DNA of 64,000 nt from Candidatus Moraniibacteriota bacterium (GCA_017983435.1 JAGOBM010000004.1:3818-67817); one strand, 5' to 3'; shown: positions 1-60,081, counted from the stretch's first letter. Numbers and translations: made by a program. The notes: generated from the letters alone by a model not told the origin.

Positions 1-1771
1 CAGACATCTGCAGATTTTTCTTTTTGAGCCAGCGGCTATGCTCTGGCCGGTAGAGATTGCGTCCGCGGTGCGAGAGGACGGCATAGTCGAAGCGCTGCTG
101 CGCAGCAGCCTCATATTCCATCGATAGACAGTGGCCCTTGAAGAATTCGCAGACGCCGTAGTAGTCGCTCCAGATGAGCAAGTGCTCTGCATTGGGCAGG
201 CTGTTGAGATATTGGGCAGCTTCGTAGCCTCCGTAGCCCCAGGAGTGATGGACGATCTCTTGTTTCGGCAGGAGGAGATTCGTATAGTTGAATGCGAATG
301 GCAGGGCCATGATGAGACTGCCGAGCGAGGCGATAGCGATGACTGCTCTGAGCTCGCGATTTCTCTGCCTGAGCAACTGGGAGAGAGGCGCGATAGCGGA
401 AGCGGCGAGAATAGCGATGATGGGATAGAGCAGGATGAGGTAGCGGGCGGTGGCGAGCACTTCGGAGAACAGTATTGCGATCAGGAAAAAGAATACGAAC
501 ATGAGCAGAGCGAAATTCTCGAAGCGAAGGCTCGATGCAAAGAGCTTCGGAAAGCGATCCTTGAGGAGAGAAGCAGCAAGATGCCAGCCGAAGAGGAGCA
601 GTACGATCGGCGGAATGGAGAATATGAGGGGGTTGAGTTCGAGCAGAGAGGCTTCGGCGAGGTTGGGCGCATAGGATTTGTCGAGCTTGTCACTGCTATA
701 GAGATCCTTGAGATCGAAAGGTATTTTTTCGAAGAGGGACCATTCGGGGAAGAATATCCGGCCGGCGATGAGTGCTATACCGGCGATCAGGAATAAGAGT
801 GAGACGGACCGTTCGATATGGGAAAGAGCGCTGATTTTTTTGACGAAAGCTGAAAGCATGGTCATGAATCGAGGCTGCCAGAGAACGATCACTCCGATGG
901 CAACGAAAGAGAGAAGCATCGGAAAGATCGGAAATCCGGCTTCGCCTCCGGCGAGGAGGTCGGCGAGCAAAGATGGCTTGAGCCAGATAGCCGGCAGGAA
1001 GAGAGCGATGACGAGCGTGCTGATACCGAGAATCGAAAAGAAAAAGAGCATGTTTCGACGGAGTATCAATCTGAGATTCTCGGGAGAAGTATCTCTCTGG
1101 AAGAGGATGTCGGTACCGATGAGAAAGATGAAGAAAGGCAAGAGGAAGCTTGCGGTATATTTCGAGAGTATGGCCATGCCGAGCAGGATGCCGGAGAGCA
1201 CGACGAATTTCCGTTCGTGTAGCTTGAGGAGTGCGAGGAAAGACAGGAGTGCCGCAGTGCCGAATGACCAGAGGAGTGCATCGGGGTTGATGATCTGGGT
1301 CATGCCGACGAGAATCGGCGAAAAAGCGATGAGCAGAGCGGCTGCGATGGCGGTATCGCGTCCGTAGAGCCGGGCCAGCAGCCAGGCGATGAGTATGAGG
1401 AGCAACGCATTGGCTACCAGGATCGGAATCCGGAAGGCGAGCAACGTCGCTGTCGCTCGTCCGCTGTCGCAGGTCGAAATCTGGAATTCGTCTTCGGAAC
1501 AGAGAGAAGCTGGATCGGGCTCGAAGAGAAGCCCGGTGCCGGAGAGGAGAGCGATTGAGACTCCGGGTTTGTCATTGATCGCGGTCTTTTTCCATTCGCC
1601 GGATTCCCATGCCTGCCAGTAGGCAGGGATGCGCTCGTAGATCCAATAGTGCTCATCAGCCGTGATGAATCGGCCGAGATGTTGCGCGCCGAAAAAGAGA
1701 TAGGCAGCGACGATGAGGCCGATCGGGAGGGAGAGGGGATATTTTCGGAACAAGGAAGCGATCAAGTGCAT
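1..1771 (-). CDS. GT-C fold polytopic membrane glycosyltransferase (PMT/ArnT-like, GT39/GT83-type); 3' end beyond window; paralog of 1778-4063 lacking the N-terminal ~170 aa
   Basis: Minus-strand frame is open from ATG at 1771 to the window edge, so it is missed by the ORF track (no in-window stop). Translation MHLIASLFRKYPLSL...DEHYWIYERIPAYW...SFLLPFFIFLIG...GYGGYEAAQYLNSLPNAEHLLIWSDYYGVCEFF is colinear with the 761-aa neighbor (compare GSGSYEAAQYLNSLPNAESMLVWTDKDGVCKFF). Nucleotide similarity is visible between 120-220 and 2030-2130. Forward ORFs 131-796 and 708-1367 are acidic antisense artefacts. Confidence 0.75.
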   Translation of the reverse strand, partial: MHLIASLFRKYPLSLPIGLIVAAYLFFGAQHLGRFITADEHYWIYERIPAYWQAWESGEWKKTAINDKPGVSIALLSGTGLLFEPDPASLCSEDEFQISTCDSGRATATLLAFRIPILVANALLLILIAWLLARLYGRDTAIAAALLIAFSPILVGMTQIINPDALLWSFGTAALLSFLALLKLHERKFVVLSGILLGMAILSKYTASFLLPFFIFLIGTDILFQRDTSPENLRLILRRNMLFFFSILGISTLVIALFLPAIWLKPSLLADLLAGGEAGFPIFPMLLSFVAIGVIVLWQPRFMTMLSAFVKKISALSHIERSVSLLFLIAGIALIAGRIFFPEWSLFEKIPFDLKDLYSSDKLDKSYAPNLAEASLLELNPLIFSIPPIVLLLFGWHLAASLLKDRFPKLFASSLRFENFALLMFVFFFLIAILFSEVLATARYLILLYPIIAILAASAIAPLSQLLRQRNRELRAVIAIASLGSLIMALPFAFNYTNLLLPKQEIVHHSWGYGGYEAAQYLNSLPNAEHLLIWSDYYGVCEFFKGHCLSMEYEAAAQQRFDYAVLSHRGRNLYRPEHSRWLKKKNLQMS

Positions 1772-1777
1772 AACCCG

Positions 1778-4063
1778 TTATTCCGAGAACGGATAGACGC
1801 GCACATACTGCGATGGCCGGTCATTGATATTGAGTTCCCAGGCCGGATCTGGCTGCGTGTAGTATTGGTCGAAACGGATGAGTCCAGGTTTCTGGCTGAG
1901 AATCTCGCCAGCCATCATCTTGGCGGTCCGGTTCTTGCGGTCAGATGAGACGACGATATAATCGAGCCCGTCGCGGCGGAGTGCCTCGTAGTTACGACCG
2001 CGCTTGCAGCGTCCGATGAAGAATTTGCAGACACCGTCCTTGTCGGTCCAGACGAGCATACTCTCCGCATTAGGGAGGGAATTGAGATACTGGGCGGCCT
2101 CATAGCTGCCAGACCCCATGTCTTTCACATTGGTATGCTGGTCGTTCGGAAGGAGCGAAGAGGCATAGGAGAGAGGAAATGGTGTCGTGGCGAGCGTCGC
2201 GGTACCGAGAGCGAGAATGAGGATCGCTACGGGGATTTCTGGAATCCGACGAAGGAACGCGAAGCGGGCGCCGAGCGTCTCCAGGAGCCAGGCGAGGGTG
2301 ATGCCGGCGATGATGGCTGCGATCGGGAAGAGAATGATCTGATAGCGGACGATCATGGCGACGTTGTTGACCGTGGCGCCGAGATAGTAGAGGAGGATGA
2401 AGGCAATCAGATAGAGAGCGGCGCGACCGGCAGTACTTTCGAGGAAAGTTTTCTTAAACAGCGCCAAGGGGATGCTGAGGACCAGGAGGAGCGAAAGCGG
2501 CAGGATACCGAAGATAAGCGGATAGAAATTGGTGAGGAAAATGCCGATGAAGTCGCTCCTGGTGGCGATGGTTTTCGGTGATGATAGGAGTTCGGAGAAG
2601 TCGTACGGGACCAGGCTGTTCCAGGAGATGACGAGCGTAGCGATGATGCTCGCGCCGAAGAGACTGCCGAGAAGAATTACGAACGGCCGTTTGACGCGAT
2701 CGAACGTGTCGATGACCGCGCTGATGATGCGTGCCCGATTGCCGATCTGGTCCACCAGGATAAAAGCGATGAGGATAAGGAAGAGCGGCGCGACTTTTTC
2801 GAAGGCCTGGCTGTAGATGGTCGAAGTCAGGAGTTTCTCTGGTTTGATCCAGACAGCCGGGAAGAGGACATAGAATGTCGCAAGCGCAGCGTAGGTGAGG
2901 ATGCCGAGCTCTATCAGGGATTGCTTGAGGAAAGTTCCGAAGCGCTGGTGTTCTGGGCGGTGGTAGAGGAATTCGAGAAAGATGAGGCCGATAAAGAAGA
3001 CGAAGAGGATATTGGCCACGTATTTGGTCAGGAGAGCGAGACCGAGAAAGATGCCGGAGAGGATGAGATAGCGAGCGAAGCGTTTCTCAAGGAAGATGAA
3101 ATAAGAGAGAAGTGAGAGCGGTGCGAAGAGCCAGAGGAGTGAGTCAGGATTGATGATCTTTGACATGCCGATGAGAATCGGCGAAGTAGCGATGAACGCG
3201 TAGGAGAACAAGGCAGTCTTCCGTCCGAGGAGGCGCTCAAGGAAGAAGTAGAAGAGCGGAAGGAGCAGGGTGATAACGATGAGTTCCGGGAGCCGGAAGG
3301 CGAGAAAGAAGCTCTCGATGCTGTCCTGGTTGCGAGTATAGGCCTCTCCCTCGTATTTGGTCGTCTTGTAGGCTTTCGGATCCTTGAACCAGAGTCCCGG
3401 TCCGGTGGACAGCGCGACGGTGATGCCGGGCTTATCGCTGATGCTCGTGCCTTTCCAATCGCGCTCCTCGATATTGTGCCAGTATTTTCCGATGCGCCCG
3501 TTGTACCAGAGCGGCTCATCAACGGCAGCGAACTTGGTGAGGTTGATCATGGCGAAACTGAAGAAGATGAATGTCCCCACGAAGACAGAGAGGAGAGCGA
3601 ATGACCCTTGGCGACGGAACCACTCGCGAGCGGTCAGGCTATCGGAGTGCCGCTGGCTCGAGCTTCGCAGGTGCGAGAGTGCGATTGAGGAGACGAAGAG
3701 TCCGGCGAGCATCATATAGCCGCTCTGCGCGATCTGGAAAACGTAGTGGAAATTCCTGGATTCGATGATGCCATAGGTCAGTACGAACCAGGCGGGGAAG
3801 GTAGCGAGGAGACCTTTCTTGAGCCAGGATCGCCACGCAGTCGGTCGGTGGTAGTAGAAGAGTATGCCGGTGAGAGTAATACCGAAAAAAGCGAATCCGG
3901 CGTAGAAAGGAGTATTGCTTTCGGCGAAGCGGAGGAAAATAAGAGAATCGGTCTGGCGGGCGATGAAAAAAAGCGTATTGATAGCAAGAAGAATGCTGAT
4001 AGCTGAGAGGAAGCGGTTTTCGACAGTGGTCAGAACGTGCTCTAAGGGTTTCCCGAGTGTCAT
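1778..4063 (-). CDS. GT-C fold polytopic membrane glycosyltransferase (dolichyl-phosphate-mannose protein mannosyltransferase / ArnT-like), 761 aa
   Basis: Long ORF with more than 12 predicted TM helices. The N-terminal loop (DEPLWYNGRIGKYW) and the hydrophobic core are typical of PMT_2/ArnT family. Has a C-terminal soluble domain. Paralogous to three neighbors. Confidence 0.7.
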   Translation of the reverse strand: MTLGKPLEHVLTTVENRFLSAISILLAINTLFFIARQTDSLIFLRFAESNTPFYAGFAFFGITLTGILFYYHRPTAWRSWLKKGLLATFPAWFVLTYGIIESRNFHYVFQIAQSGYMMLAGLFVSSIALSHLRSSSQRHSDSLTAREWFRRQGSFALLSVFVGTFIFFSFAMINLTKFAAVDEPLWYNGRIGKYWHNIEERDWKGTSISDKPGITVALSTGPGLWFKDPKAYKTTKYEGEAYTRNQDSIESFFLAFRLPELIVITLLLPLFYFFLERLLGRKTALFSYAFIATSPILIGMSKIINPDSLLWLFAPLSLLSYFIFLEKRFARYLILSGIFLGLALLTKYVANILFVFFIGLIFLEFLYHRPEHQRFGTFLKQSLIELGILTYAALATFYVLFPAVWIKPEKLLTSTIYSQAFEKVAPLFLILIAFILVDQIGNRARIISAVIDTFDRVKRPFVILLGSLFGASIIATLVISWNSLVPYDFSELLSSPKTIATRSDFIGIFLTNFYPLIFGILPLSLLLVLSIPLALFKKTFLESTAGRAALYLIAFILLYYLGATVNNVAMIVRYQIILFPIAAIIAGITLAWLLETLGARFAFLRRIPEIPVAILILALGTATLATTPFPLSYASSLLPNDQHTNVKDMGSGSYEAAQYLNSLPNAESMLVWTDKDGVCKFFIGRCKRGRNYEALRRDGLDYIVVSSDRKNRTAKMMAGEILSQKPGLIRFDQYYTQPDPAWELNINDRPSQYVRVYPFSE

Positions 4064-4065
4064 AG

Positions 4066-5952
4066 ATGTTGTACCATTGGGTTAGACCAAGCTCCGGGTT
4101 GCGGAGCTGGTTCCGACCCCATAATAGCGCAAAACCTATGGATATTAAAGGCGATCACGGGCAATGGCGGACGGCCATTGTTTTTGCGATGCTACTGGTC
4201 CTGTGTGCTGGTTTCTTCCTCCGGAGCTATCATTTCTCCGATTGGCTGCATTTCGAGCTTGATCAGGCTCGGGATGCCCGGGTTATCGATGCGGCTATCG
4301 ACGGTTCGGCAGCAGACTTGCCGCTCCTCGGTCCCAAGGCGGGAGGGACTTTTCTCCGTCTCGGGCCATTTTTCTATTATTTCCAGTATGCGACCGGACT
4401 GGTATTCGGCGCGGATCCGGCTGGCTATGCGACCGGGGTCATGCTGCTCTCGGTAGCGACGCTCGCCGTCTTCTTTCTGCTCGTTCGACGCTTCTTCATC
4501 GATCGGATTGCGATTGGGCTCACAGCGATTATGGCGGTGTCGCTGTTTTTCGTCATGTATGGCCGCTTCGCTTGGAATCCGAATCCATTACCATTCTTTG
4601 TCCTGTCGGGACTCTATGCACTCTTGCGGTCTGTCGATACGCATGAAGAGCAGAGAGGATGGTGGTTTGCAGGAGCCGTAGCGATGTTTGGTATCGCATC
4701 GCAGCTGCATTTCCTCGCGTTTCTTGCGTTGCCGGCAATACTCGGTGTGTTTCTCATCTTGCGACGACCGCGTTATCCGTGGAAGGCATGGATCGGAGCG
4801 ATCGCGATGGTCGGGCTTCTTTATCTCCCAGTTATCCTGAATGAAATAGAGACTAGAGGGCAGAATTCACAAGAATTCATGGCGGCGATTACGGAAAAAT
4901 CGACCAAAGAGGAACACATGTTGGCTGAGAAATTCCTGCGTGATGTGAGCGAACATGGCTTGGCAGCGCTCGTCATAACGACCGGTTTTGAGGGAGGAAT
5001 GTTTCCGTCGTTGCGCATCGAGAATGGCGGTATCGGCAGCTATTGCTTCGGTCGCTGCGATGAAGGGAAATGGTACGGATTGGCAGCTGTGCTCGTGCTC
5101 GGTATGTCGATTCTGGCTTTTTTCTGGCTCTGGTGGCGAGAGCGCGAACGGATCAAAGCGGATTTCCTGCTGCTTATGGGCATCTGGTTTGTGGTTACTT
5201 TTATCTTGTTTCTGCCTTTGTCATATGGCATCGCTCCAAGATTCTTTCTCCTTTCCGGGCCGCTCTTTCTGATTTTCCTCGGGGCGCTCTGCGTCATGAT
5301 CGAGCGGATACTGCACCGTCATCATATCGGAAAGATCATTGCTATGTCGGCGGTAGTCCTTCTCGTAGGGTCGAATCTTTTCTTCGTGTCGAAGCGTTTC
5401 GATGAGCTCTCGCGTGCGGGCAGTGAGGCAATAGTGAGCGAGCCGGATCGGGTACTCAAGGAGCGCATCCGAGTGACGCTGGAGCAGCAGACAGGGATCA
5501 TTGATCTTCTAGAGTCTCGCTCAAAGGAACATGGATATCCGGTGTATATGTTCAGCGAGCCGCAGCATCGCCGGGCGCTCAAGTATCTGCTTGAACAAAG
5601 AGGAATTGAGAATGCCGTGCTCGGGTTTGACGGAGTGTATCGTCAGGGTGTGTACTATCTGATTCTGCGATCCCAATCCGATCACGAGGATGCGCTGAAG
5701 AAATATCGCGAGAGCTATATCGTCGGCAAGAAAACAGAATTCGGGACGCTGGTCGCCTTCGAACTTACTCCGAAGCCGGAGGCGATTATCGGAGAGCGGC
5801 AGGATTTCAGCATCAAAAAACCTTCAGATTCTCAGGCGCCGCCGCGCTATACCTGGCGTGAGTGGTTCGGTCGGAACCAGGCGGCATCGGTGGATAGCGA
5901 TACGGAAGACACACTCGACGGACCAGAGGATGTGACTGATGAAAGCAATTAA
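4066..5952 (+). CDS. GT-C fold membrane glycosyltransferase (ArnT/PMT-like); probable true start at Met25 (4138)
   Basis: Polytopic membrane ORF with an ArnT-like N-terminus (DQARDARVIDAAIDGSAADLPLLGPKAGGTF). Divergent from the 1778-4063 gene. The internal Met at 4138 leaves a ~75-bp intergenic spacer. Confidence 0.7.
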   Translation: MLYHWVRPSSGLRSWFRPHNSAKPMDIKGDHGQWRTAIVFAMLLVLCAGFFLRSYHFSDWLHFELDQARDARVIDAAIDGSAADLPLLGPKAGGTFLRLGPFFYYFQYATGLVFGADPAGYATGVMLLSVATLAVFFLLVRRFFIDRIAIGLTAIMAVSLFFVMYGRFAWNPNPLPFFVLSGLYALLRSVDTHEEQRGWWFAGAVAMFGIASQLHFLAFLALPAILGVFLILRRPRYPWKAWIGAIAMVGLLYLPVILNEIETRGQNSQEFMAAITEKSTKEEHMLAEKFLRDVSEHGLAALVITTGFEGGMFPSLRIENGGIGSYCFGRCDEGKWYGLAAVLVLGMSILAFFWLWWRERERIKADFLLLMGIWFVVTFILFLPLSYGIAPRFFLLSGPLFLIFLGALCVMIERILHRHHIGKIIAMSAVVLLVGSNLFFVSKRFDELSRAGSEAIVSEPDRVLKERIRVTLEQQTGIIDLLESRSKEHGYPVYMFSEPQHRRALKYLLEQRGIENAVLGFDGVYRQGVYYLILRSQSDHEDALKKYRESYIVGKKTEFGTLVAFELTPKPEAIIGERQDFSIKKPSDSQAPPRYTWREWFGRNQAASVDSDTEDTLDGPEDVTDESN

Positions 5953-5966
5953 AGATTGATAAATCT

Positions 5967-7502
5967 ATGCGTATGGAACTGAGCTGGAAGAAAACATGGT
6001 CTGTTTTGGGCCTTATCCTCGTGCTTGGATTCGGCGCGCGCGCCTATGGTCTCGGGAACAATTCCTTCGTCGCGGATGAGTTTCTCGATATGAATTCCGC
6101 CTACGGGTATTTCCAGACCGGAGAATGGAAAGCCTGGGATTTCAATCACGGGGCGCCGAGCCAAGTGAATGCAAACGATGCACGTGATGAACGGGCGAAT
6201 ATCTACAAGTGGCAAGTGGCGCAGCTGTTCCATATCCTGCCGCCGACCGAGGCGACCGCGCGAATAGTGAGCGTCTTCTGGGGTCTCGTCTCGATGCTGG
6301 TCGTTTTCTGGAGCACACTCGTGTTTACGCGGCGCAAGGAGATAGCGCTCCTGGCGACACTCTTGTTCGCCGTATCGGTGGCTGGCATCATCTTCGATCG
6401 GCGATTGCGCATGTATGCCATGTTTACCCCGGTCTATCTTGCGTTGGCGACAGTCATCTATCAGAGCTTCGAAGATCAGGCGCGGATGCGCTGGTGTGGG
6501 TGGCTGCAGGCGCGGATCGGCGTGCATCCGCGATACGCGCTGCTGTCGGCCGTGCTCTTGGTTATCGGTCTTTCGACGCATCAGCTCTCGGCGATGGTCG
6601 TCTTTTCGGTCGCAGCCTATCTGATCGTCATGGGTATACGTGAGTATCGAGCGAGCGGTGTCTGGAAAAACCGCTACAGCGGATGGCTTGCGTTTGGTAT
6701 CGCCGGAGTGGCAGCGCTCGGTATGGTGGCCCCGCAGTTCCTGACCTCATTCACGTCGGGACTCATGTGGTTCGACGATCATTATAGTTATGTCGGGTAC
6801 GTGATGGAGGACTATGCACATCCGCTCTTGGCAGTGTTTCTCATGGGTTTTGGCGCGTATGTCATCGCTCTGCGTGAGCGGCAGACCAAGGCGGCCTGGT
6901 ATCTCACGCTCTCATTCCTCATCCCGCTCGCTTTTGCTATCTGGTTCTTCCGTCGCAATGCTGGTCCGCAGTATATCTTTTTCGCGCAGTCATTCGGACT
7001 GATTCTCTCAGCAGCCGGTGTCTATGGACTGTGGGAGATTCTCAAGGAGCGTTTCTCGGGCTGGGGGCGGCATACGGCGCTTATCGTACTCATCGGTCTC
7101 GTGCTCCTCGTGCCGAATTTCGGTTATTTTCTTGAGGAAAACAATACGTATCATGAGACGTCCTCGGGAGGCAATCCGAACTATCGCAAAGTCTTCGAGT
7201 ATTTCCGCAAGAACCAACTGCCGACTGATGTGCTGGTGACGCGCAATTTCCGCAATTATTACTGGAGCGGTACCGATGTGACGGTCTATGATCTCGGTGA
7301 TGAGATCCATCGAGGGAAGCTCTCGCGTGAGGCGCTCTCGGCTATCGTCCTGCGGCATCCGAGCGGCTGGGTGGTGCTCTCTGATAATGACTATGATTAC
7401 TTTTCCAATGAGGCTGAAGAGCTCATGAAGCGGGATATGGAACGGGTGAGTAATCCGTCAGTCCGTGGACCGATCGAGGTCTATCGCTGGGGGCACAAAT
7501 AG
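5967..7502 (+). CDS. GT-C fold membrane glycosyltransferase (ArnT/PMT-like), 511 aa
   Basis: Polytopic membrane ORF. N-terminal motif GLGNNSFVADEFLDMNSAYGY resembles the ArnT/PMT first-loop acidic motif. Fourth paralog of the array. Confidence 0.65.
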   Translation: MRMELSWKKTWSVLGLILVLGFGARAYGLGNNSFVADEFLDMNSAYGYFQTGEWKAWDFNHGAPSQVNANDARDERANIYKWQVAQLFHILPPTEATARIVSVFWGLVSMLVVFWSTLVFTRRKEIALLATLLFAVSVAGIIFDRRLRMYAMFTPVYLALATVIYQSFEDQARMRWCGWLQARIGVHPRYALLSAVLLVIGLSTHQLSAMVVFSVAAYLIVMGIREYRASGVWKNRYSGWLAFGIAGVAALGMVAPQFLTSFTSGLMWFDDHYSYVGYVMEDYAHPLLAVFLMGFGAYVIALRERQTKAAWYLTLSFLIPLAFAIWFFRRNAGPQYIFFAQSFGLILSAAGVYGLWEILKERFSGWGRHTALIVLIGLVLLVPNFGYFLEENNTYHETSSGGNPNYRKVFEYFRKNQLPTDVLVTRNFRNYYWSGTDVTVYDLGDEIHRGKLSREALSAIVLRHPSGWVVLSDNDYDYFSNEAEELMKRDMERVSNPSVRGPIEVYRWGHK

Positions 7503-7525: not shown

Positions 7526-7561
7526 GCCCGGCCTGCGTGGTGACGCGTGCCGGGTTTTTTT
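7526..7561. terminator. bidirectional intrinsic terminator between convergent genes
   Basis: GC hairpin CCCGGC...GCCGGG followed by a T7 run on the plus strand and a T-rich tract on the minus strand. Confidence 0.6.
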
Positions 7562-8274: not shown

Positions 8275-9750
8275 CTATGGCATGCGCCGCTTGATCAGCT
8301 TGGCAAATGGGGCAAGATCCTCGTCGGTCAGCTCGCCGGCGAGGCGGAGCAGAGCAAAATAGATGGCTGCCAATGCAGCACCAGAAAGGAGGAAGCTCCA
8401 AGTGTCATGCGGTAAGAAGCGGGAGAGAAAGACGATGATCGCTGAGGTAGCGAGTGAGAGAGCAAAAGTGCGGAAGGCGATATGGACGGAGAAATGCCGC
8501 TGGGTGTAGATGAGGATACCGATGGTGATTGCGACCGCGGTAAGAGCGGCGGCCAGGGCGGCGCCTTCGATACCGAAGCGCGGGATGAGAATGAAATTGA
8601 GTAGGGCCATGGCGATGAATCCGAAGAAGGAAAGCTTCATCGGGACCCGGACGAGTCCGGCACCGTTGAGCGCGAAGGCGAGGACGTAGAAGACGGTGAG
8701 GAATCCGACGCCGACGGCGAAGATGCTCATGGCCTGCTCTGCGCCCGCGTAACGATTGCCATAGAAGAGATGGAGGATCGGCTCAGCGTAGATGACGAGC
8801 AGCGTGATCATCGGGAAAAGCAGGAGGATCATGAGCCGGAGCGCCTTGCGGACCAGACTGGTGGTTTCTTCAGTGTTACGCTCAGCGGTCGTCTTGGAGA
8901 TGGCCGGGAGCATGATCATGGCGAGCGCCGCAAAGAGATAGTAGGGGATGCGACCGACCGTGATGGCAGCATTGTAGAGTCCGGTCGCGTGGTCATCCTG
9001 GAGCAGGGCTTTGACGAAGTAGAGATCGATGGTGAGGAGGAGCTCGTAGAAGACGAGGAAGAGTGTCAGCGGTCCGGCGTAGGCGAGTATGGTTTTGGCG
9101 GGGAACTGGAAATCGTGGCTGGCATCTTGCTGGCCGATGCCGAGTCGTCGTTTCACATAGAGCTCATCGATGAGGATGGCAGCGGCAAACGTGAAGAGCG
9201 GGGCGAGCACGTAGCCGCCGACGGCGCCGTTGAGACCGAAGAAGATGGCTGCGAGAGCGATGAAGCCGACGCGGGCGATGGAGCGAATGATCTTGACGAT
9301 AGCCTGAAGCTTGAAGAGGTGTAGCCCGGTGAAATAGTGATGGTAGAAGGAAGCAGCAGCGAAAGCCGGGATGATGAGGGCGGAGAGCTGGAAGAGCGGA
9401 GTGAGGGATGCGTCTCGGAGGGCCCAGGCGATGGCTGGTGCGAGCAGGAAGAAGATGACCGTGATACCGCCGATGATGATGACTTGGAGTCGGGCGGCTT
9501 GGCGTTTGATAGCAGGGATATTCTTCGGGTTCTGCTCGAGGACTTCGCTCAGGTATTTGGCCATGGTGGTCGGGATGCCGTTGCCGATAAGGACGATGAC
9601 CATAGTGGTGAGCGTCACGACGAGCCCGTAGCGGCCATAATCAGCCGGACCCAATATGCGGCCAGCGACCGAGTGGACGACATAGGCGGCGATATTGAAG
9701 ACGATTTCGGAGGCGGTGAGCCAGAGAAGGGCGGACGAGAATTTTTTCAT
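8275..9750 (-). CDS. Wzx-type oligosaccharide/polysaccharide flippase (polysaccharide biosynthesis protein family, MOP superfamily)
   Basis: 491 aa with ~12-14 TM. N-terminus MKKFSSALLWLTASEIVFNIAAYVVHSVAGRILGPADYGRYGLVVTL is typical of Wzx/RfbX-like flippases. Confidence 0.7.
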   Translation of the reverse strand: MKKFSSALLWLTASEIVFNIAAYVVHSVAGRILGPADYGRYGLVVTLTTMVIVLIGNGIPTTMAKYLSEVLEQNPKNIPAIKRQAARLQVIIIGGITVIFFLLAPAIAWALRDASLTPLFQLSALIIPAFAAASFYHHYFTGLHLFKLQAIVKIIRSIARVGFIALAAIFFGLNGAVGGYVLAPLFTFAAAILIDELYVKRRLGIGQQDASHDFQFPAKTILAYAGPLTLFLVFYELLLTIDLYFVKALLQDDHATGLYNAAITVGRIPYYLFAALAMIMLPAISKTTAERNTEETTSLVRKALRLMILLLFPMITLLVIYAEPILHLFYGNRYAGAEQAMSIFAVGVGFLTVFYVLAFALNGAGLVRVPMKLSFFGFIAMALLNFILIPRFGIEGAALAAALTAVAITIGILIYTQRHFSVHIAFRTFALSLATSAIIVFLSRFLPHDTWSFLLSGAALAAIYFALLRLAGELTDEDLAPFAKLIKRRMP

Positions 9751-10920: not shown

Positions 10921-12393
10921 ATGGATATGGAACGGACGTGGAAATATCTCCTGTATGCCTTTGTCGGTCTGCTGCCGCTGCAGACGGTGTATTTGCTGCG
11001 CGAAGTCTTCATCGGGGGAGAGAAATGGCAGTATGGGACCATTGCTGTCTATGTGTCAGATAGCATATTGTTTTCAGTTCTTATTCTCTTTTTTATTTCT
11101 GGTGATTACGCCGGGAAGATTTTTGATTTTAGATATTGGATTTTCGATCTAAAATCCAGAATCAAGAATCTAAAATCAGAATCAGTGCTGCCTATAGCAC
11201 TGATTCTCTGGGCCGGCCTGTCTATCCTCTGGGCGCCGGATCAGATGCTTGCGGGATATTTCGTCATGAAGCTCGCGCTCGCGGTCGGAGTGTTTTTGAT
11301 GGTGAGATCTTTGGATGAGAAAGAATCCAGGATAGCGGTTCTTCTCGTGGTTATCGGTGCGGTCTTGGAGGGCGCTCTCGGAGTATGGCAATTCCTCGCC
11401 CAATCGACATTCGCATCGACACTGCTTGGTATGAGCGCGCATGAGGCGGGCCAGGCCGGGACGTCGGTCTTGAAGCTCGGGGATGGCCGCTGGCTCCGGG
11501 CATACGGCACACTGCCGCATCCCAATATGCTCGGAGGATTCCTGGCGGCGGCGCTCGTGCTCGGAATCGGATACCTCACCCGTTTTGGAAAAGACTCTTT
11601 GTGTACCGTGCTGATGAGCCGTGCAGAGCTTCGGGAGAGCGGTGCTTCTCTCTGGGATCGATTCATAGATACGGTCCGGATGTCTGGTATAACTCTAGCC
11701 GGAGCGATGCTGCTACTCGGTCTCCTCCTGACGTTTTCCCGATCGGCATGGCTGGGTGCCGCTCTCGGCATCACTGTTCTCGCTACCTATTTCTTTTTCC
11801 AATCAAAATCAGCAAAATCAGAAAGTAACATAATTCCACGGCCGTCAGATTATGTAACATTTTATAAAACAATTTTTGTGCTGGTAGCGGTAGGGATAGC
11901 GTTTGTCGGGGTGTTACGCACACAGATTTTCCCACGATTTGATAGTGCGGTCATCGCCGCTGAAGGATCGGTCTCAGAGCGCGTGCAGTCGCTTTGGGAT
12001 GCTGAGCGCGTCATCGGCGAGGGGAATATACTGATCGGGACCGGAGTCGGCAACTTCACGGCTGAGATGATGCGATTGCAGCCTGATCGGCCCGTGTGGA
12101 GCATCCAGCCGGCGCACAATGTCTTCGTGCTCATCTTCGCTGAGCTCGGCCTGGTCGGATTTGTGTTGTTTATCGGATTCCTTGCGCCTGTCATTCTGAG
12201 CGCAGTGAAGAATCCCGAGATTCCTCGACAGGCTCGGAATGACAAAGGGTATCGTGTGATGAGTATTGCTGCTCTTGGGGCGCTCCTCCCGAGCCTTCTC
12301 CTCGATCATTGGCTCTGGACCTCACATTTCGGTCTACTGCTTCTCTCTATGCTCCTCGGTATCGCCGCGCGGAAATACGGAAATCTTGCTTAA
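10921..12393 (+). CDS. O-antigen ligase / Wzy_C family membrane protein
   Basis: 490 aa polytopic protein. The LLLTFSRSAWLGAALG motif and a large periplasmic loop are typical of WaaL/O-antigen polymerase family. Carries two A-rich heptamer insertions. Confidence 0.65.
   Translation: MDMERTWKYLLYAFVGLLPLQTVYLLREVFIGGEKWQYGTIAVYVSDSILFSVLILFFISGDYAGKIFDFRYWIFDLKSRIKNLKSESVLPIALILWAGLSILWAPDQMLAGYFVMKLALAVGVFLMVRSLDEKESRIAVLLVVIGAVLEGALGVWQFLAQSTFASTLLGMSAHEAGQAGTSVLKLGDGRWLRAYGTLPHPNMLGGFLAAALVLGIGYLTRFGKDSLCTVLMSRAELRESGASLWDRFIDTVRMSGITLAGAMLLLGLLLTFSRSAWLGAALGITVLATYFFFQSKSAKSESNIIPRPSDYVTFYKTIFVLVAVGIAFVGVLRTQIFPRFDSAVIAAEGSVSERVQSLWDAERVIGEGNILIGTGVGNFTAEMMRLQPDRPVWSIQPAHNVFVLIFAELGLVGFVLFIGFLAPVILSAVKNPEIPRQARNDKGYRVMSIAALGALLPSLLLDHWLWTSHFGLLLLSMLLGIAARKYGNLA
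11120..11186. repeat. A-rich heptamer repeat tract (GATTTTR / AAAATCY units, both orientations) in frame within O-antigen ligase gene
   Basis: tttgattttagatattggattttcgatctaaaatccagaatcaagaatctaaaatcagaatcag. Includes palindrome ggattttcgatctaaaatcc. Encodes IFDLKSRIKNLKSES. Confidence 0.6.
11800..11826. repeat. A-rich repeat (CAAAATCAG x2) in frame within O-antigen ligase gene
   Basis: ccaatcaaaatcagcaaaatcagaaag encodes FQSKSAKSES. Confidence 0.5.
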
Positions 12394-20380: not shown

Positions 20381-21331
20381 TTATCGGGAATACTTCTCTT
20401 TTTTCGCGAAGTACATCATGTCTTCGGTGAGCCGGCGGTTGGTCTTGATCATATCGGCCATGAGGGCGAAGACGAAGAATTGGAGCCCGATGACGAAGGT
20501 CGCGAGCGCGGAGATGAGATAGTTGCGATACGGGGTGATCTTCCAATCTTGGAAATAGTGGACGAGGAAGGCGGTGAAGAGTCCGACAGAGATGAGCATG
20601 AGGATGAGCCCGGGGATGCCGAAGAATTTCATCGGGCGCACGTCGCGGACCGCTTTCAGGATGATACGGAAGCTGTTGTTGATATAGCCGAAGACGCTCT
20701 TGACGACGCGCGACTGCCGGTCAGCAAAATAGGTGACCGTCACCGGCACGAAGGCGAGCTTGAGATTCTTGCCGAGGGCGTCGATGATGACTTCCTGGGT
20801 GTAGGTGAAATCGCCGGGCAGATTGAGCCGGAGCAGGGTCTCTCGGCTGTGGGCGCGGAAACCACAGGTGAGGTCCGGTATGACGGTGTTCATGAAGCCG
20901 CCGATGAGACGGGCGGCGAAACGATTGAGCACATTTTTGATCCATGGGATATTCTCGGCGGAAGACTCGGTGAAACGGTCGGCGCTCACCATGTCGGCAG
21001 TCTGATCGAGTATCGGACGGATGAGTTTCTCGATGTCGGTCGGGTCGAACTGTCCGTCGGCGTCGATATTAACCATGATATCAGCCTGGTTCTCGAGGGC
21101 GCGCTCGACGGCATGGCGGAAGGTCTTGCCGACGCCGCGATTCACGCCGTTGGCATAGACGAAATCAGCGCCTGCCTCGCGGGAGACTTCGATAGTCCTA
21201 TCTTTGGATCCGTCATCGATGACCTGGACGAGGACCTCGCTGATACCCTCGAAGGAGCGCGGGATGCGCTGGATGGTCTGGCCGATCTTCTCTTCTTCGT
21301 TGTACGCGGGGATATTGACGATGAGACGCAT
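20381..21331 (-). CDS. GT2 polyprenyl-phosphate glycosyltransferase (DPM1/GtrB/ArnC-like) with C-terminal TM helices
   Basis: LIVNIPAYNEEEKIGQTI...VIDDGSKDRT...NIDADGQ (DxD) GT2 core plus two C-terminal TM segments. Confidence 0.7.
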   Translation of the reverse strand: MRLIVNIPAYNEEEKIGQTIQRIPRSFEGISEVLVQVIDDGSKDRTIEVSREAGADFVYANGVNRGVGKTFRHAVERALENQADIMVNIDADGQFDPTDIEKLIRPILDQTADMVSADRFTESSAENIPWIKNVLNRFAARLIGGFMNTVIPDLTCGFRAHSRETLLRLNLPGDFTYTQEVIIDALGKNLKLAFVPVTVTYFADRQSRVVKSVFGYINNSFRIILKAVRDVRPMKFFGIPGLILMLISVGLFTAFLVHYFQDWKITPYRNYLISALATFVIGLQFFVFALMADMIKTNRRLTEDMMYFAKKEKYSR

Positions 21332-21755: not shown

Positions 21756-23054
21756 TTACCGTCCGATACCCTTGTAGCGGATGCCGGCCTTGAGGAAGGC
21801 GTCCTTGTCGAGGCAGTTCTTGCCGTCGATGATGGCCTTGATCTTGTGCTTCTTGAGGAGGGCTGGGGTGATGAGCTCCTTGAATTCCCGGTGATCGGTC
21901 GCGAGGACGAGCGCATCGGATTTCTTGAGGATGGCATCGAGCGATTTGGCCGTCGAGAGGCGGAGGAGGTGTGGATCGTAGGTGATGACCTTGGCCTTGT
22001 GCTCCTCGAGGTGCTCGATGATATCGATAGCCGGCGATTCGCGGAGGTCATCGATGTTCGCTTTGTAGGCGAGACCGAGGACACCGACCGGCGTACCGTT
22101 GAGAGCGACCTTGGCATCGTTCAGGAGATCCTGCAGGAGCTCGACGGTGTAGGCCGGCATGGAGTTGTTGATCTCGCGGGCGATCTTGAGGAAACGATGA
22201 TCGAAACCGGACTGCTTGGCGCGTTCGATCAGATAGTACGGATCGACTGGGATGCAGTGTCCGCCGACGCCGCAGGATGGGAAGTGAGGCATGAAGGAGA
22301 ACGGTTTGGTGGAGGCTCCCTGGATCACATCTTTCACGTCGATGCCGAGTACATCGAATGAGCGGGCGAGCTCATTGACGAAAGCGATGTTGATATCGCG
22401 GAACGAGTTTTCGACGACCTTGACCGCCTCTGCTTCGCGGATCGATTTCATCGGACGGATCTCGCCGTCGACGATAGCGCGGTAGAATTCGAGCGCCATC
22501 TTGAGACCCTTGGCATCGAAAGCTCCGACGACACGCGGAATATTGGTGACGTTCCATTTCTCATCGCCTGGGTTGATACGCTCCGGGCAGTGGGCGATGA
22601 AGACGTCCTTGCCGAGCTTGTGCCCGTGCTCCTCGAAGATCGGGCGGATGACTTCTTCGGAGACACCTGGGTTCACGGTCGATTCGAGCACGACGAGCGC
22701 ACCTTTCTTCAGATGTTCAGCCGAGACGGTCGCGGCCGAGATGACCGGCTCGAGGTCTGGATAGTACATCTCATCGACTGGAGTCGGCACACAGATGAGG
22801 ACGATATCCGCATCCGCGAGACGGGAGGCGTCAGTCGTCGCCTCAAAAGGGAATTTCGGGATATTGTCGATCAGGTACTGGTCTTCGATCGGACTCTTCT
22901 TCTTTTTGAGGACCTCGACTTTCTCCGCGTGCGTGTCGAAGCCGATGACCGTATATCCACGTTCGACGGCGCGTACGGCGAGAGGGAGTCCGACATACCC
23001 GAGACCGATTACGGCCACTGTCTTTTTCTGTACTGTTCCCATAAGGGTGATCAT
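21756..23054 (-). CDS. ugd: UDP-glucose 6-dehydrogenase / nucleotide-sugar dehydrogenase family
   Basis: Rossmann N-terminus VAVIGLGYVGLPLAVRAVERGYTVIGFD, catalytic Cys region (FSFMPHFPSCGVGGHCIPVDP) and a C-terminal UDP-binding domain. Confidence 0.75.
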   Translation of the reverse strand: MITLMGTVQKKTVAVIGLGYVGLPLAVRAVERGYTVIGFDTHAEKVEVLKKKKSPIEDQYLIDNIPKFPFEATTDASRLADADIVLICVPTPVDEMYYPDLEPVISAATVSAEHLKKGALVVLESTVNPGVSEEVIRPIFEEHGHKLGKDVFIAHCPERINPGDEKWNVTNIPRVVGAFDAKGLKMALEFYRAIVDGEIRPMKSIREAEAVKVVENSFRDINIAFVNELARSFDVLGIDVKDVIQGASTKPFSFMPHFPSCGVGGHCIPVDPYYLIERAKQSGFDHRFLKIAREINNSMPAYTVELLQDLLNDAKVALNGTPVGVLGLAYKANIDDLRESPAIDIIEHLEEHKAKVITYDPHLLRLSTAKSLDAILKKSDALVLATDHREFKELITPALLKKHKIKAIIDGKNCLDKDAFLKAGIRYKGIGR

Positions 23055-23988: not shown

Positions 23989-25203
23989 ATGAAAATAGGC
24001 ATCAACGCATCGTTTCTTCGGAAGCCTGGGACCGGTATCGGACAGGTCACGGCTAACTTTTTGGAAAAGTTGGCCGAATATGGAATGCAGAATATCGAAT
24101 ATCGGAAAGAATCCGAAAAATCTACATTCAATATTTCACATTCCACATTCATCCTGTATACCCAGGAGCCGACCGATATCGCGCTGCCGGAAAATTTTGA
24201 GGTGAAATCGTTCCTGCCGCGCTGGTGGAGACGGGATGACGTGCCGCGGCAGCTCCTGTGGGAGCGCGAGCTCGCCAGTCGAGCCACTGAAGACGGCTGT
24301 GATGTTTTTGTATCGCTCTACCAATCCGCAACGATCTTTCCAAAATCCAAAATCCAAAATCCAGAATCGTCACTTCGGCATGTTATGGTGGTGCACGATA
24401 TCATCCCGAAGCTCTTTCCGGAGTATCTCGGGTCGCTTTCCCGACGCTGGCACTGGCGCGGCATCGAGCGGGGTATACGGAGAGCGGATCATATCATCGC
24501 CGTATCGCAGTCTACAGAGGAGGATATAGAGAAGCATCTCAGTGTTGTGCCGGAGCGCATCTCAGTCGCGCACCCCGGACTCTCGCCGATTTTTGCCACT
24601 CCGGCTTCGGATGAGCAGGTGAATGAGACGCTCGCCCGCTATGGTCTCGAGCGCGGCTATATCTATCATGGCGGAGGGCTCGAGATCCGCAAGAATACTC
24701 AGGCAGTACTCGAGGCCTACGCGCTCCTGCGGGGCGACCCGACGGTCGCTCATATGCCGCCGATCGTCATTTCCGGACAGATACACCCCAAAACCAATCC
24801 ACTCGCGACCGATGTCGTCGGTTTGATCGAATCGCTCAGCCTCAGCCACGCGGTCTATCTGCTCGGCCGTGTCCCGGAGGCGGATCTGCCGGCGCTCTAT
24901 CGTGGCGCTTCGCTCTTCATCTACCCGTCGTTCTATGAGGGATTCGGATTGCCTCCGGTCGAAGCGTTTTCACAGTCGACCCCGGTGATCGCCTCGCGCG
25001 CTTCATCGCTGCCGGAAATCTGCGGCGACGCGGCACTGTTCGTCGATCCCGGAGAGCTGGATGATATCGCTGCGGCGCTGCGGCGGCTGCTCAATGACGC
25101 GGAGCTCCGAGCCGAGCTCGGCGAGCGGGGCTACCAGCGGTCGCAGGATTTCTCCTACGAGCGTTTCGTCGAGACGATAATCAAGCGATGCCTCTCTCTA
25201 TGA
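23989..25203 (+). CDS. glycosyltransferase family 4
   Basis: C-terminal [31 protein letters not shown]. Contains in-frame (CCAAAAT)n tract. Confidence 0.7.
24340..24369. repeat. (CCAAAAT)~4 heptanucleotide microsatellite in frame within GT4 gene
   Basis: ccaaaatccaaaatccaaaatccagaatcg encodes [13 protein letters not shown]-rich in a GC-rich gene. Confidence 0.65.
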
Positions 25204-26792
25204 CCATGACCGATCTGCAATCATCTTTCTCCGGCGCGATAGGCTATGTGAGACGCCATCGGATCAAGTTTGCGCTCCAGGCGGCAAATATCGTGTTCGG
25301 CGTTCTAGCACTCAGTCTCGCTCTGTCGGGGGTGCTACCGATGAGTCTGGTGAATTTCGTCTTCTTCTCTTTCCTTCTCCTGCTCGTTGCGCTCTATCGT
25401 CCGGTCTGGATATTTCTCCTCCTCGTCGGCATGCTGCCGTACGAGATCGTCAATCTGGCTCCGGCCGAGGTCGGCTTCATGTTGCGACCGTATCAGTGGC
25501 TCATGATTATCCTCCTTGGAGCGGTCGTCATCCGATGGTTTGTCGGGCGTCGGGCAGTGCCGAATCTTCGCTTCGTCTGGATCGACGCTCTGCCGGCCGT
25601 GTTTTCCATGGGCGCGTTGATCGCTGCAATCGGGGCGCATCCGTCCGGACCCGCCTTCCGGCTCGCGCTCATCCTCTCGAGTTTCGTCGGGCTGTATTTC
25701 GTCGTGAGGCTGTTCATCCGATCTGCCAAAGAAGCGGTCCACGTCGTGCCGTTCCTCTCGGCATCGTTTGCTATCGTTGCGCTCTGGTCGCTCATGCAGA
25801 ATATCCTCTTCGCTCTGGGAGGGGCACATTTCGAGGTGATGGCCGGTCGACCCAACGGATCGTTTTCTGAGCCGGATTGGCTCGGCATGTATCTGCTCTT
25901 CTTCGTCGCGCTCGCGCTCGCCTGGCTCTATCGTCATCTGGTGCTGCGGCAGCGCCCGATCCTCTCCATCGCTCCATCACTCCTCCTTTTCCTCGCCTCG
26001 CTCGTGCTTTTCCTCTCGATGACTCGCAGCGCCTGGATCGGCCTGGCAGCGATGGGAGCATTCTTCGCGCTCGCGGTGATGACGGTCTCTATGAAGCTCG
26101 GTGAGCCGAAGCGGGGAGCGCGGCTCCTCGGCCAGTCGGCGGGTATCATCGTGATCGCTCTCCTCTTGATCCCGCTTCTCCATCTGTCGCGCTTCGATAT
26201 ATTTGATCGGGCGGCCTCGACCGGCGGCGAGCAGAAGATCACCATCGCATGTGATGGAGACTCGACCCTGCCGGTACGCCTGGAAAAAATCGAGAGCCTG
26301 GATCAGCTGTCTGCGTGGCACTGCCGGCATATCATGCTCGAAGATATCGCAATGGAGCAGGCGGCTGGAAGATCCATCACCACGGTCTATCGCGATGATC
26401 CCAATGTCTCGATCCGGAAATCGATCTATGAGCGCATCTTTGCATCCGGATCCGAGCGTCCGGTCCAGGGCATCGGGTGGGGCAATATCGGCACGCGGCT
26501 CGGATCGGATGAGCGCGGTGCGGCTCTCAACGCGAGCAATATGTTTCTCGAGTTCTGGCTCGGCAGCGGCCTCATCGGCCTCGTCGCTTTCTCGCTCCTG
26601 TGGTTCGTGCTCGGTTTCCAGTCCGGACGCCTCGCTCTGTCGGGCGGGCAGGAGGAAGTAGCTTTTCCGCTCTTCTTCCATCTGGCCTGGATCGGCTGCA
26701 CGGTTTTCAATCTGTTCAATTCCGGTATTCTGCTCGGGTTCTTCTTCTTCCTGCTCGGGCTCGGAGGACTCTTGTTCCAGAGACGATCATAA
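25188..26792 (+). CDS. O-antigen ligase / Wzy_C family membrane protein (second copy)
   Basis: Polytopic protein with LFLSMTRSAWIGLAAMGAF motif and a large extracytoplasmic loop. Overlaps upstream GT4 stop (ATGA). Confidence 0.6.
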   Translation: MPLSMTMTDLQSSFSGAIGYVRRHRIKFALQAANIVFGVLALSLALSGVLPMSLVNFVFFSFLLLLVALYRPVWIFLLLVGMLPYEIVNLAPAEVGFMLRPYQWLMIILLGAVVIRWFVGRRAVPNLRFVWIDALPAVFSMGALIAAIGAHPSGPAFRLALILSSFVGLYFVVRLFIRSAKEAVHVVPFLSASFAIVALWSLMQNILFALGGAHFEVMAGRPNGSFSEPDWLGMYLLFFVALALAWLYRHLVLRQRPILSIAPSLLLFLASLVLFLSMTRSAWIGLAAMGAFFALAVMTVSMKLGEPKRGARLLGQSAGIIVIALLLIPLLHLSRFDIFDRAASTGGEQKITIACDGDSTLPVRLEKIESLDQLSAWHCRHIMLEDIAMEQAAGRSITTVYRDDPNVSIRKSIYERIFASGSERPVQGIGWGNIGTRLGSDERGAALNASNMFLEFWLGSGLIGLVAFSLLWFVLGFQSGRLALSGGQEEVAFPLFFHLAWIGCTVFNLFNSGILLGFFFFLLGLGGLLFQRRS

Positions 26793-26816: not shown

Positions 26817-27953
26817 ATGCAAAAAACGATAGCGATCGATATCCGGCTCCTCGGCAAGCGACGGACCGGAGATGAGATGGTCTTCCGGCATCTGACCCGC
26901 GGAGTGCTCGCGCTCGATCGGGAGAACCGCTATCTCCTCCTGACTGATGAGACCGATCGGAGCCGGCTGACGGCGCTCTATCATGAGCTCGATATCGTCG
27001 GACGGGAGCATGTCGAGATCGTCACGCTCTCCGGACGCAATCGCTTCGTATGGAACCTGCTCTCCGTGCCGCGCTTCCTCATGCGACAGCACATCGATGT
27101 CTTCCATACGCAGTACATACTGCCGCTCTTCGTGCCGCGCCGGACCCGGGTAGTCCTGCATATTCATGACGTCTCATTCCGCGCGATGCCGTGGATGATC
27201 GGATGGAAAGACCGGCTGTTCCTCTCGGCACTCATACCGCACGCGCTCCGCCGGGCCGATACGATCGTCGTGCCGTCGCAGTTCACTCGCGATGAGATCG
27301 TCGGCTACTACGGGGTCGGATCGTCGAAGGTCGCCGTAGTGCCCAATGCGCTCGGAGAAGGTTTCGATCGGGAAGCGACCGATGCGGAAGTAGGAGTAGC
27401 CCGCGAGCGCTACGGACTGCCGGAGCGATATATCGTCGCGGTTGGCACGCTGCAGCCTCGGAAGAATCTCCCGCTCCTGATCCGGGCGGTCGCCAAGCTT
27501 CGTGAGCGGGACCCGTCTCTTCAGTTGGTCCTGGTTGGCAATCGGGCTGGCCATCATTTTGATAGCGAGGTTGATCATGCGATTGCGGAGACCCGCCTCG
27601 GCGATGCCGTGGTATTTCCGGGATTCGTGGCGGCCGGAGATCTGGCAGCGGTGGTGCGAGGCGCGCTCGTCTATGCGTTCCCGTCCCGCTATGAGGGTTT
27701 TGGTATACCGCTCCTCGAGGCGATGAGTCAGGGGGTGCCGGTCGCGGCATCAGATATCCCGTGCCTCCGGGAAGTGGCAGGGGACGCGGCTGTCTATTTT
27801 GACCCGACCAGGGTTGATGCCTGCGCGGAAATCCTGTATACTCTGACCATTGACTCTGACCTGAGAAGCCGGCTTATTGGAGCTGGAAAGTCGTGCATTG
27901 CGCGGTATTCATGGGAGCGGAGCGCTCAATTGTTAGCAGAAATATATGCCTGA
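26817..27953 (+). CDS. glycosyltransferase family 4
   Basis: PSRYEGFGIPLLEAMSQGVPVAASDIPCLREVAGDAAVYFDP. Confidence 0.7.
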   Translation: MQKTIAIDIRLLGKRRTGDEMVFRHLTRGVLALDRENRYLLLTDETDRSRLTALYHELDIVGREHVEIVTLSGRNRFVWNLLSVPRFLMRQHIDVFHTQYILPLFVPRRTRVVLHIHDVSFRAMPWMIGWKDRLFLSALIPHALRRADTIVVPSQFTRDEIVGYYGVGSSKVAVVPNALGEGFDREATDAEVGVARERYGLPERYIVAVGTLQPRKNLPLLIRAVAKLRERDPSLQLVLVGNRAGHHFDSEVDHAIAETRLGDAVVFPGFVAAGDLAAVVRGALVYAFPSRYEGFGIPLLEAMSQGVPVAASDIPCLREVAGDAAVYFDPTRVDACAEILYTLTIDSDLRSRLIGAGKSCIARYSWERSAQLLAEIYA

Positions 27954-60065: not shown

Positions 60066-60081
60066 AGGGAGAGAATGAAAA

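Follow-up and report, generated by a model that had tools for sequence, protein, structure and literature searches.

A conserved set of three GT-C glycosyltransferase families, with one old duplicate, beside an envelope glycan cluster of Candidatus Moranbacteria

Introduction

In the lipid A aminoarabinose pathway, the GT-C glycosyltransferase ArnT (GT83) works together with ArnC and Ugd, and the galacturonosyl system of Rhizobium consists of RgtE and RgtA-D, with several GT-Cs sharing one lipid-linked donor for different acceptor positions. Patescibacteria, also known as the candidate phyla radiation (CPR), are uncultured bacteria with reduced genomes, often living as episymbionts, and their envelope chemistry is almost unknown. 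Here we analyze four adjacent glycosyltransferase genes, G1 to G4, at the start of a 64,000-nucleotide stretch of a Candidatus Moraniibacteriota genome (GCA_017983435.1 JAGOBM010000004.1:3818-67817), the whole of which we call the window. The host of this locus belongs to Candidatus Moranbacteria within the Patescibacteria.

Multi-component systems for transmembrane glycosylation are described from Gram-positive bacteria, in which a GT-A synthase of an undecaprenyl-phosphate (C55-P)-linked sugar is combined with a flippase and a GT-C, as in CsbB/GtcA/YfhO, GtlA/GtcA/GtlB, GacI-J/GacK/GacL, and the lactococcal CsdAB/CD/EF with CflA (PMC8035078). For archaea, a gene neighborhood has been predicted that joins a pfam03706 MprF-like flippase domain, arCOG00563 (PMT/STT3-like; TIGR03663 "Agl23"), and an AglD-like GT2 (PMC5898192, section 3.4). 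Our literature searches for GT-C, PMT_2, or ArnT in CPR bacteria or Moranbacteria returned nothing relevant, and a search for PF03706 was equally unhelpful.

We find that G1 to G4 represent three GT-C families that share no detectable sequence similarity, and that G1 is an old duplicate of G2. The set looks like an ordinary extracytoplasmic sugar-adding system for the cell envelope. In the reading that we favor, with a probability of about 0.62, each of the four enzymes works on the outer face of the membrane, where it takes a single sugar from a flipped polyprenyl-phosphate donor and attaches it to its own acceptor site on a wall glycopolymer or a protein.

Results

A first-pass annotation of the window had described the four genes as paralogues in a tandem array, one of them truncated at its N terminus. 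Only G1 and G2 proved recognizably related, with 35% identity over 570 amino acids (aa) and an E of 9e-76 in BLASTP. No significant BLASTP alignment was obtained for G3 with G2, G4 with G2, or G4 with G3, and hhalign comparisons of the same three family pairs, both profile to profile and sequence to profile, returned probabilities of about 1%. Deep homology of the G2, G3, and G4 families was considered and rejected on these results. With the G1-type gene of another genome (L002), G1 shares 42% identity, more than the 35% it shares with its own neighbor G2, and therefore the duplication that separated G1 and G2 is old. Between the same two genomes, the G1-type proteins have diverged faster than the G2 proteins (42% versus 56% identity).

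Instead of a tandem array, the genes make two divergent pairs, G2 followed by G1 on the minus strand and G3 followed by G4 on the plus strand, with gaps of 6 nt and 14 nt inside the pairs (Table 1). We infer from this layout that each pair is a co-transcribed two-gene operon. The open reading frames (ORFs) at 1778-4063 (minus), 4066-5952 (plus), and 5967-7502 (plus) are present as first annotated and code for 761, 628, and 511 aa in the ORF listing. G3 probably starts at the ATG at 4138 rather than at 4066, because its orthologues line up only from residues 29-39 of the 628-aa ORF and Logan calls a gene of 604 aa. G1, rightly described as invisible to the ORF track, has a minus-strand frame that is open from an ATG at 1771, six bases past the G2 stop, to the window edge (590 codons); it is missing from the ORF listing because it runs off the window. 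Complete G1 was recovered from a Logan contig (L001:12293-14152) that was found by exact-protein look-up of G2 and extends beyond the window start. It encodes 619 aa, is intact, with no stop or frameshift on the longer sequence, and ends colinearly with the C terminus of G2. Promoter and terminator scans of the region gave site totals not clearly above the shuffled expectation.

That all four proteins are GT-C-fold, PMT/ArnT-like polytopic glycosyltransferases with acidic first-loop motifs is borne out by Pfam, by structure models, and by motif invariance. G1, G2, and G3 pass the gathering cut-off of PMT_2 (PF13231; 26.1 bits) with 53.6 bits (E 3.8e-14), 50.8 bits (E 2.9e-13), and 39.8 bits (E 6.9e-10), respectively. 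No Pfam family matches G4 at E up to 1, and by this test G4 is not a member of PMT_2. More than 500 homologues of the G4 family were detected, and the precomputed Pfam column is empty for all 120 G4 homologues among the matches listed. Fold evidence comes from AlphaFold2 (AF2) models for G2 and G4, from the 35% identity to G2 for G1, and from the PMT_2 match for G3. The G4 model, built from 47 homologues, has a predicted local distance difference test (pLDDT) score of 82 and a predicted TM-score (pTM) of 0.82. Its top 21 matches in a Foldseek search of the PDB are all GT-C structures at probability 1.0, with TM-scores up to 0.57, and comprise STT3/AglB/PglB, ArnT (0.53-0.56), DPY19, ALG9, AftA, and Pmt4. 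The top 30 matches of the G2 model (pLDDT 86.7, pTM 0.88) are likewise all GT-C, including STT3, AglB, ArnT, Pmt4, and ALG12, at lower TM-scores of 0.23-0.39 when normalized to the query. Hydropathy analysis found at least eight hydrophobic segments in each of the four proteins, and the two models contain about 11-17 membrane helices followed by a C-terminal alpha/beta domain.

In every family, an acidic motif directly follows a transmembrane helix (helix 7-26 in the G4 model), and its key residues are invariant among the family members aligned (Table 1). TIGR03663 (Agl23) is the only NCBIfam model touched by all four proteins, at 31.0, 32.3, 17.8, and 19.5 bits for G1 to G4 against a cut-off of 126.25, so that none is a member. 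No curated ArnT model appeared among the NCBIfam matches at E up to 1, and the likeness to ArnT is one of fold only. Paired invariant cysteines were also observed in predicted extracytoplasmic parts, within GVCKFFxGxC in G1/G2 (G2 residues 679 and 686; window ~2006-2029, minus strand) and within CFGRC in G3 (residues 303 and 307), which suggests conserved disulfides. A DsbA-like thioredoxin gene is found in the window at 59034-60137.

The PMT matches raise the question of whether these enzymes are protein O-mannosyltransferases, which would modify Ser/Thr residues of pilins, S-layer proteins, or other secreted proteins from polyprenyl-phosphate mannose made by a DPMS (dolichol-phosphate mannose synthase)-like GT2. 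G2 exceeds the gathering score of Pfam PMT (PF02366; 41.9 versus 22.7 bits, E 1.2e-10) and its orthologues carry the NCBI label glycosyltransferase family 39. Moreover, Pmt4 is among the fold matches, and the GT2 of the window has a dolichol-phosphate mannose synthase as its best solved match. However, the PMT match of G2 is partial (profile positions 76-230 of 245), G3 falls just under the cut-off with 22.0 bits, and at E up to 1 neither G1 nor G4 matches PF02366 and none of the four has a reported PMT_4TMC domain. No solved structure in the PDB, ArnT and the PMTs included, is a detectable sequence relative of any of the families, whether searched by single protein or by family profile, and oligosaccharyltransferase (OST), AglB, and ArnT structures equal or outscore PMTs in the fold search. 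The setting, too, is a polysaccharide cluster with Wzx, Wzy_C, GT4, and LCP genes. Overall, we regard O-mannosylation of proteins as an improbable role for the set.

G1 had been thought to start about 170 residues later than G2, to be colinear with it from the DEPLWY loop onward, and so to lack the first transmembrane bundle. Its N terminus is indeed about 140 residues shorter than that of G2, but the alignment begins at residue 17 of G1 and residue 158 of G2, before the DE loop, and takes in the hydrophobic helix that precedes this loop. The acidic pair of the predicted catalytic loop is itself retained as D39-E40. G3 and G4 show the same arrangement as G1, a single helix and then the acidic loop, and the solved GT-C enzymes ArnT and PglB, among others, start in this way. 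Of 88 residues that are invariant in G2 past position 150, G1 keeps 58, including DE, DKPG, NPD, KY, RY, and two cysteines, and it retains every motif common to the G1 and G2 groups. G1-type genes elsewhere encode about 608-619 aa, most with just 6-57 open codons 5' of the alignment start. G1 is thus complete.

What sets the two paralogues apart is an N-terminal extension of G2 with four predicted helices (Table 1), which precedes the canonical first helix (154-172) and is modeled as a block at pLDDT 80-94 (AF2). G2 has more than 100 orthologues, about 745-782 aa long, whose alignments cover 97-100% of it, and the extension is conserved among them. Searches with 16 extension sequences hit no Pfam family, giving scattered noise only, and a profile of the extension run against 1.84 billion representatives returned 39 matches, all of them of G2-type length or short fragments. 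Because the extension is confined to G2 orthologues, it most likely represents a gain in G2 and not a loss in G1. The parsimonious interpretation, which draws partly on the N-terminal layout of solved GT-C enzymes, assigns the canonical form to G1 and the gain of a lineage-specific membrane module to G2.

Two possible fusions involving G2 were examined and rejected. A GtrA-type flippase fused to G2 would fit roughly in size and helix count, but the extension does not match PF04138, and the idea was dropped at the sequence level. A 1116-aa protein (P0130) that resembled a further G2 fusion is an over-extended gene call, since its extra 355 N-terminal residues are domainless and the G2 alignment begins at an internal Met. 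Comparison of the extension with the neighboring DUF2304 and PF03706 proteins gave hhalign probabilities below 1%.

These results bear on the explanation implied by the first-pass annotation, namely, a local tandem expansion of four PMT/ArnT-like paralogues, of which one has lost its first transmembrane bundle and may be a degenerate or neofunctionalized truncation. Such an expansion would account for the adjacency and similarity of G1 and G2, for the shorter N terminus of G1, and for the faster divergence of the G1-type orthologues. It does not account for G3 and G4, which show no detectable relationship with G1/G2 or between themselves, nor for the helix ahead of the DE loop in G1, the upkeep of the short form in other genomes, or the restriction of the extension to G2 orthologues. 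Moreover, as described next, the arrangement is conserved throughout the order and is not local. We consider the expansion with a truncated copy to be essentially refuted and its probability very small.

To place the four genes in a wider framework, GTDB species representatives were scanned with the G4 alignment, which yielded 124 species with a relative, and neighbors were tallied by tblastn in the 80 loci kept. G3 lies directly upstream of G4 in 69 of the 80 loci. A divergent G2-type gene is present in 53 of the 60 loci with at least 2.6 kb available upstream of G3, with identities of 40-70% across the trio, and in 46 of these 53 the G2 alignment extends into the N-terminal extension. A second gene of the G1/G2 family directly follows G2 less regularly (20/45), and a clear G1-type gene was found in 17/51 loci. 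Further out, a PF03706 gene occurs beyond G2/G1 in 40/45 loci and a Wzx gene within 3 kb downstream of G4 in 65/69. Across the order, G4, G3, and G2 form a conserved core to which G1 is a patchily retained accessory; the trio is therefore not the local expansion and diversification proposed earlier. Many GTDB representative records among L008-L083 that carry the locus are third-party annotation (TPA) assemblies titled "uncultured Bdellovibrionales bacterium"; with G2, G3, and G4 40-70% identical to those of Moranbacteria, these titles are probably mislabels.

Of the neighboring Wzx/WaaL/LCP cluster noted earlier, the Wzx and LCP genes are real, and the ligase-type neighbors were found by Pfam to be Wzy_C proteins; several further GT4 and GT2 genes belong to the window cluster. 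Two kinds of candidate donor synthase occur. The first is a GT2 with a GT-A domain and two C-terminal hydrophobic helices, encoded in the window beside a UDP-sugar dehydrogenase gene (Table 1). Searched against PDB sequences, it matches the Pyrococcus furiosus Dol-P-Man synthase 5mlz (E 2.5e-18), ArnC (E 5.8e-10), and GtrB 5ekp (E 1.5e-5), and at least nine related loci have a close homologue at a distance of about 9-10 kb downstream of G4. The second is found in relatives (L011, L087, and L088), in which PF03706/G2 is flanked by a GT4, a dehydrogenase, and an ArnC-like GT2 (E 9.5e-46 to solved ArnC). In L088, G2 retains these PF03706/GT4/dehydrogenase/ArnC-like GT2 neighbors although it is separated from G3/G4. 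Just left of window position 1, a PF03706 gene (LPG_synthase_TM, MprF flippase-type; L001:14146-14598, minus strand, E 2.6e-13) converges on G1 and is cut by the contig end.

The fixed arrangement and the two synthases invite a different explanation, in which the three GT-C families would act one after another to build a core glycan or lipoglycan outside the cytoplasm, like mycobacterial Mpt/Emb/Aft, and would serve assembly rather than decoration. The presence of the trio in 53/60 species-level loci in fixed order suits a core function over strain-variable decoration, the neighborhood includes two distinct candidate genes for polyprenyl-phosphate sugar synthases, each with a UDP-sugar dehydrogenase gene beside it, and AftA, AftD, and EmbB are among the weaker fold matches. 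Yet fold likeness to Emb/Aft is below that to OST and ArnT, the C-terminal soluble domains of the G2 and G4 models (~100-120 aa) do not reach the size of the carbohydrate-binding modules of Emb/AftD, and a complete Wzx/Wzy-type pathway able to build a polymer is already there. We judge that sequential core-glycan assembly is unlikely.

Several observations concern the surroundings of the four genes. RtcB, thymidylate kinase, and FGase-like genes are interspersed in the window cluster, and the RtcB-Tmk-Wzx order is kept in L002 and L004. Between Wzx and thymidylate kinase, a DUF559/Vsr-like endonuclease-fold ORF (9823-10167, minus strand, E 2.5e-36) looks like a small insertion, because the two genes abut in L002 and L004. 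A 197-aa ORF between G4 and Wzx (7574-8167, minus strand) has no Pfam match or hydrophobic segment and is a gene call in L001; in L002 and L004 there is no room for it, as Wzx is only 50-170 bp from G4. A 638-aa polytopic membrane protein (17289-19205, minus strand), encoded between two GT4 genes, has at least 10 hydrophobic segments and no Pfam match, and its 655-aa counterpart in L002 has a weak precomputed match to DUF6541; the window protein may be another GT-C-like or Wzy-like enzyme. An apparent fusion of GT2 and Ugd in L004 (L004:14384-16654, 756 aa) was considered as a Rosetta-stone link between the two and rejected, since its middle is garbled and the genes are separate in L011, L087, and L088, a pattern that points to a probable frameshift in a long-read assembly. 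In the same assembly, RtcB is split into two ORFs (L004:2841-3815), most likely by an indel error as well, which calls for caution in drawing fusions from it. Plus-strand GC skew is positive throughout window positions 1-24000 (+0.07 to +0.26), whatever the gene orientation, and low-GC patches lie at 32-36 kb (0.46-0.50, with a NERD-domain ORF at 33765-34535) and 52-54 kb (0.415).

Table 1. Coordinates of the glycosyltransferase genes, their predicted catalytic motifs, and neighboring features in the window
Feature	Position	Strand	Basis or remark
G1, GT-C glycosyltransferase, short-form G2 paralogue	1..1771	-	Residues 1-590 inside the window; complete protein 619 aa
G1 Asp39-Glu40 (ADEHYW), predicted catalytic first-loop motif	1652..1657	-	Aligns with G2 D182-E183; invariant in 10/10 G1-type proteins
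G2, GT-C glycosyltransferase with N-terminal extension, 761 aa	1778..4063	-	PMT_2 and PMT matches; AF2 model; orthologues
G2 Asp182-Glu183 (VDEPLW), predicted catalytic first-loop motif	3515..3520	-	Invariant in 46 orthologues and also in 10 G1-type paralogues
G2 N-terminal extension, residues 1 to ~150	3614..4063	-	Four predicted helices, 14-35, 51-71, 77-101, and 107-135, plus short helix 145-152
Intergenic region separating the divergent pairs G2-G1 and G3-G4	4064..4137	.	74 bp if G3 starts at ATG 4138; G2 start at 4063 (minus); related loci also have a divergent gap
G3, GT-C glycosyltransferase, second family, 604 aa from ATG 4138	4138..5952	+	Mechanical ORF starts at 4066 (628 aa)
G3 first-loop motif D42-Q-A-R-D46, within WLHFELDQARDA	4261..4275	+	H38, D42, Q43, R45, and D46 invariant in 64 G3-family sequences
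G4, GT-C glycosyltransferase, third family without Pfam model, 511 aa	5967..7502	+	AF2 model, Foldseek
G4 Asp37-Glu38 (ADEFLD), predicted catalytic first-loop motif	6075..6080	+	D37, E38, and D41 invariant in 47 sequences
Terminator-like hairpin then T-run, 3' of G4	7534..7550	+	Pattern scan, consensus match only
Wzx/MOP-family flippase, convergent with G4	8275..9750	-	Polysacc_synt E 1.7e-25, MurJ E 4.5e-16
Two Wzy_C (O-antigen ligase/polymerase-type) membrane proteins	10921..12393 and 25188..26792	+ and +	
Membrane-anchored GT2, candidate polyprenyl-phosphate sugar synthase (DPMS/ArnC/GtrB-like)	20381..21331	-	Glycos_transf_2
UDP-glucose/GDP-mannose-family 6-dehydrogenase beside GT2	21756..23054	-	UDPG_MGDP_dh N-terminal, central, and C-terminal domains
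LCP ligase	27946..29172		

Discussion

In the single-sugar transfer that we favor, a membrane-anchored GT2 of the GtrB/ArnC/DPMS type would work at the cytoplasmic face, taking a monosaccharide from a nucleotide sugar and attaching it to polyprenyl phosphate. The candidates are the GT2 beside the UDP-sugar dehydrogenase in the window and the ArnC-like one beside G2 in relatives. A flippase, possibly the PF03706 MprF-type protein past the window edge or the Wzx downstream of G4, would then move the lipid-linked sugar outward. At the outer face, each GT-C may pass the sugar to a different acceptor site by means of the invariant Asp/Glu of its first external loop. The acceptor would most likely be the wall glycopolymer made by the adjacent Wzx/Wzy_C/GT4/LCP genes and, alternatively, secreted proteins.

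Several points weigh against this scheme. The donor sugar, the acceptor, and the flippase are all read from genomic context, and specificity is not transferable from known enzymes because none of the families has a sequence-detectable solved relative. The GT2 of the window lies 13 kb from G4, with unrelated RtcB, thymidylate kinase, and FGase-like genes in between, and the ArnC-like GT2 beside G2 is seen in relatives only, since neither the window nor L001 reaches that far. No GtrA-type flippase was found. Moreover, G3-G4 stand without a G2 nearby in seven of the 60 informative loci, four of them from the closest relatives by G4 identity, and therefore the trio is not obligatorily linked.

A more far-reaching proposal, which we put forward as speculative and doubtful, is a Moranbacteria-wide assembly line in which the three GT-C families, the PF03706 protein, and the two dehydrogenase/GT2 pairs would together produce, outside the membrane, a core envelope glycan or lipoglycan that contains uronic acid, by a logic like that of mycobacterial lipomannan and arabinan synthesis. 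The G2 extension would then be a built-in docking or lipid-donor-handling module, for example a fused flippase or adaptor without known relatives.

The type of system, with its scheme of GT2, flippase, and GT-C, is known already, and the conceptual gain is modest. New here are G4, as a widespread GT-C family that Pfam does not model; the extension at the N terminus of G2, which is restricted to the lineage, has four predicted helices, and lacks detectable relatives; and a fixed arrangement of three GT-C families across Moranbacteria. Under single-sugar transfer, this conserved set marks an order-wide envelope glycosylation pathway with candidate donor synthases and flippases adjacent, and it offers defined targets for work by heterologous expression and by analysis of glycans. 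Once modeled as families, G4 and the G2 extension would also improve automatic annotation.

Compared with the aminoarabinose pathway, the locus shares the GT-C fold, with the likeness of the G4 model to ArnT given above, and its relatives encode an ArnC-like GT2 and a UDP-sugar 6-dehydrogenase beside G2. In contrast, no homologues of ArnA, ArnB, ArnD, or ArnE/F were seen, and the four proteins have neither an NCBIfam ArnT match nor sequence similarity to solved ArnT. Lipid A is moreover not expected in a monoderm CPR bacterium. With the PMTs of GT39, the set shares the DE motif in the first external loop, the passing PF02366 score of G2, and the family name given by NCBI. It differs in that this profile match is partial, in having no PMT_4TMC or MIR domain, in G1, G3, and G4 staying under the PF02366 cut-off, and in a context that points to glycopolymers. 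The predicted archaeal neighborhood has the same three protein kinds adjacent, that is, a pfam03706 protein, a GT-C, and a GT2. However, the host is bacterial here, several GT-C genes stand in place of one, and TIGR03663 scores far below its cut-off.

The Gram-positive systems resemble the locus in their overall makeup, since a GT2 synthase candidate, flippase candidates, and polytopic GT-Cs occur together in a wall-polysaccharide cluster with LCP. As in those systems, several GT-Cs of little mutual similarity occur in one genome, and, as with GacK/GacL, a Wzx-type flippase adjoins a GT-C. Unlike in those systems, the conserved neighbor is an MprF-type PF03706 protein and not a GtrA-type flippase, and the GT-Cs do not belong to YfhO (no PF09586 match) and have no sequence similarity to characterized members. 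In place of GT-A/GT-C pairs, the putative moranbacterial system comprises three GT-C families in a fixed arrangement that is conserved throughout the order.

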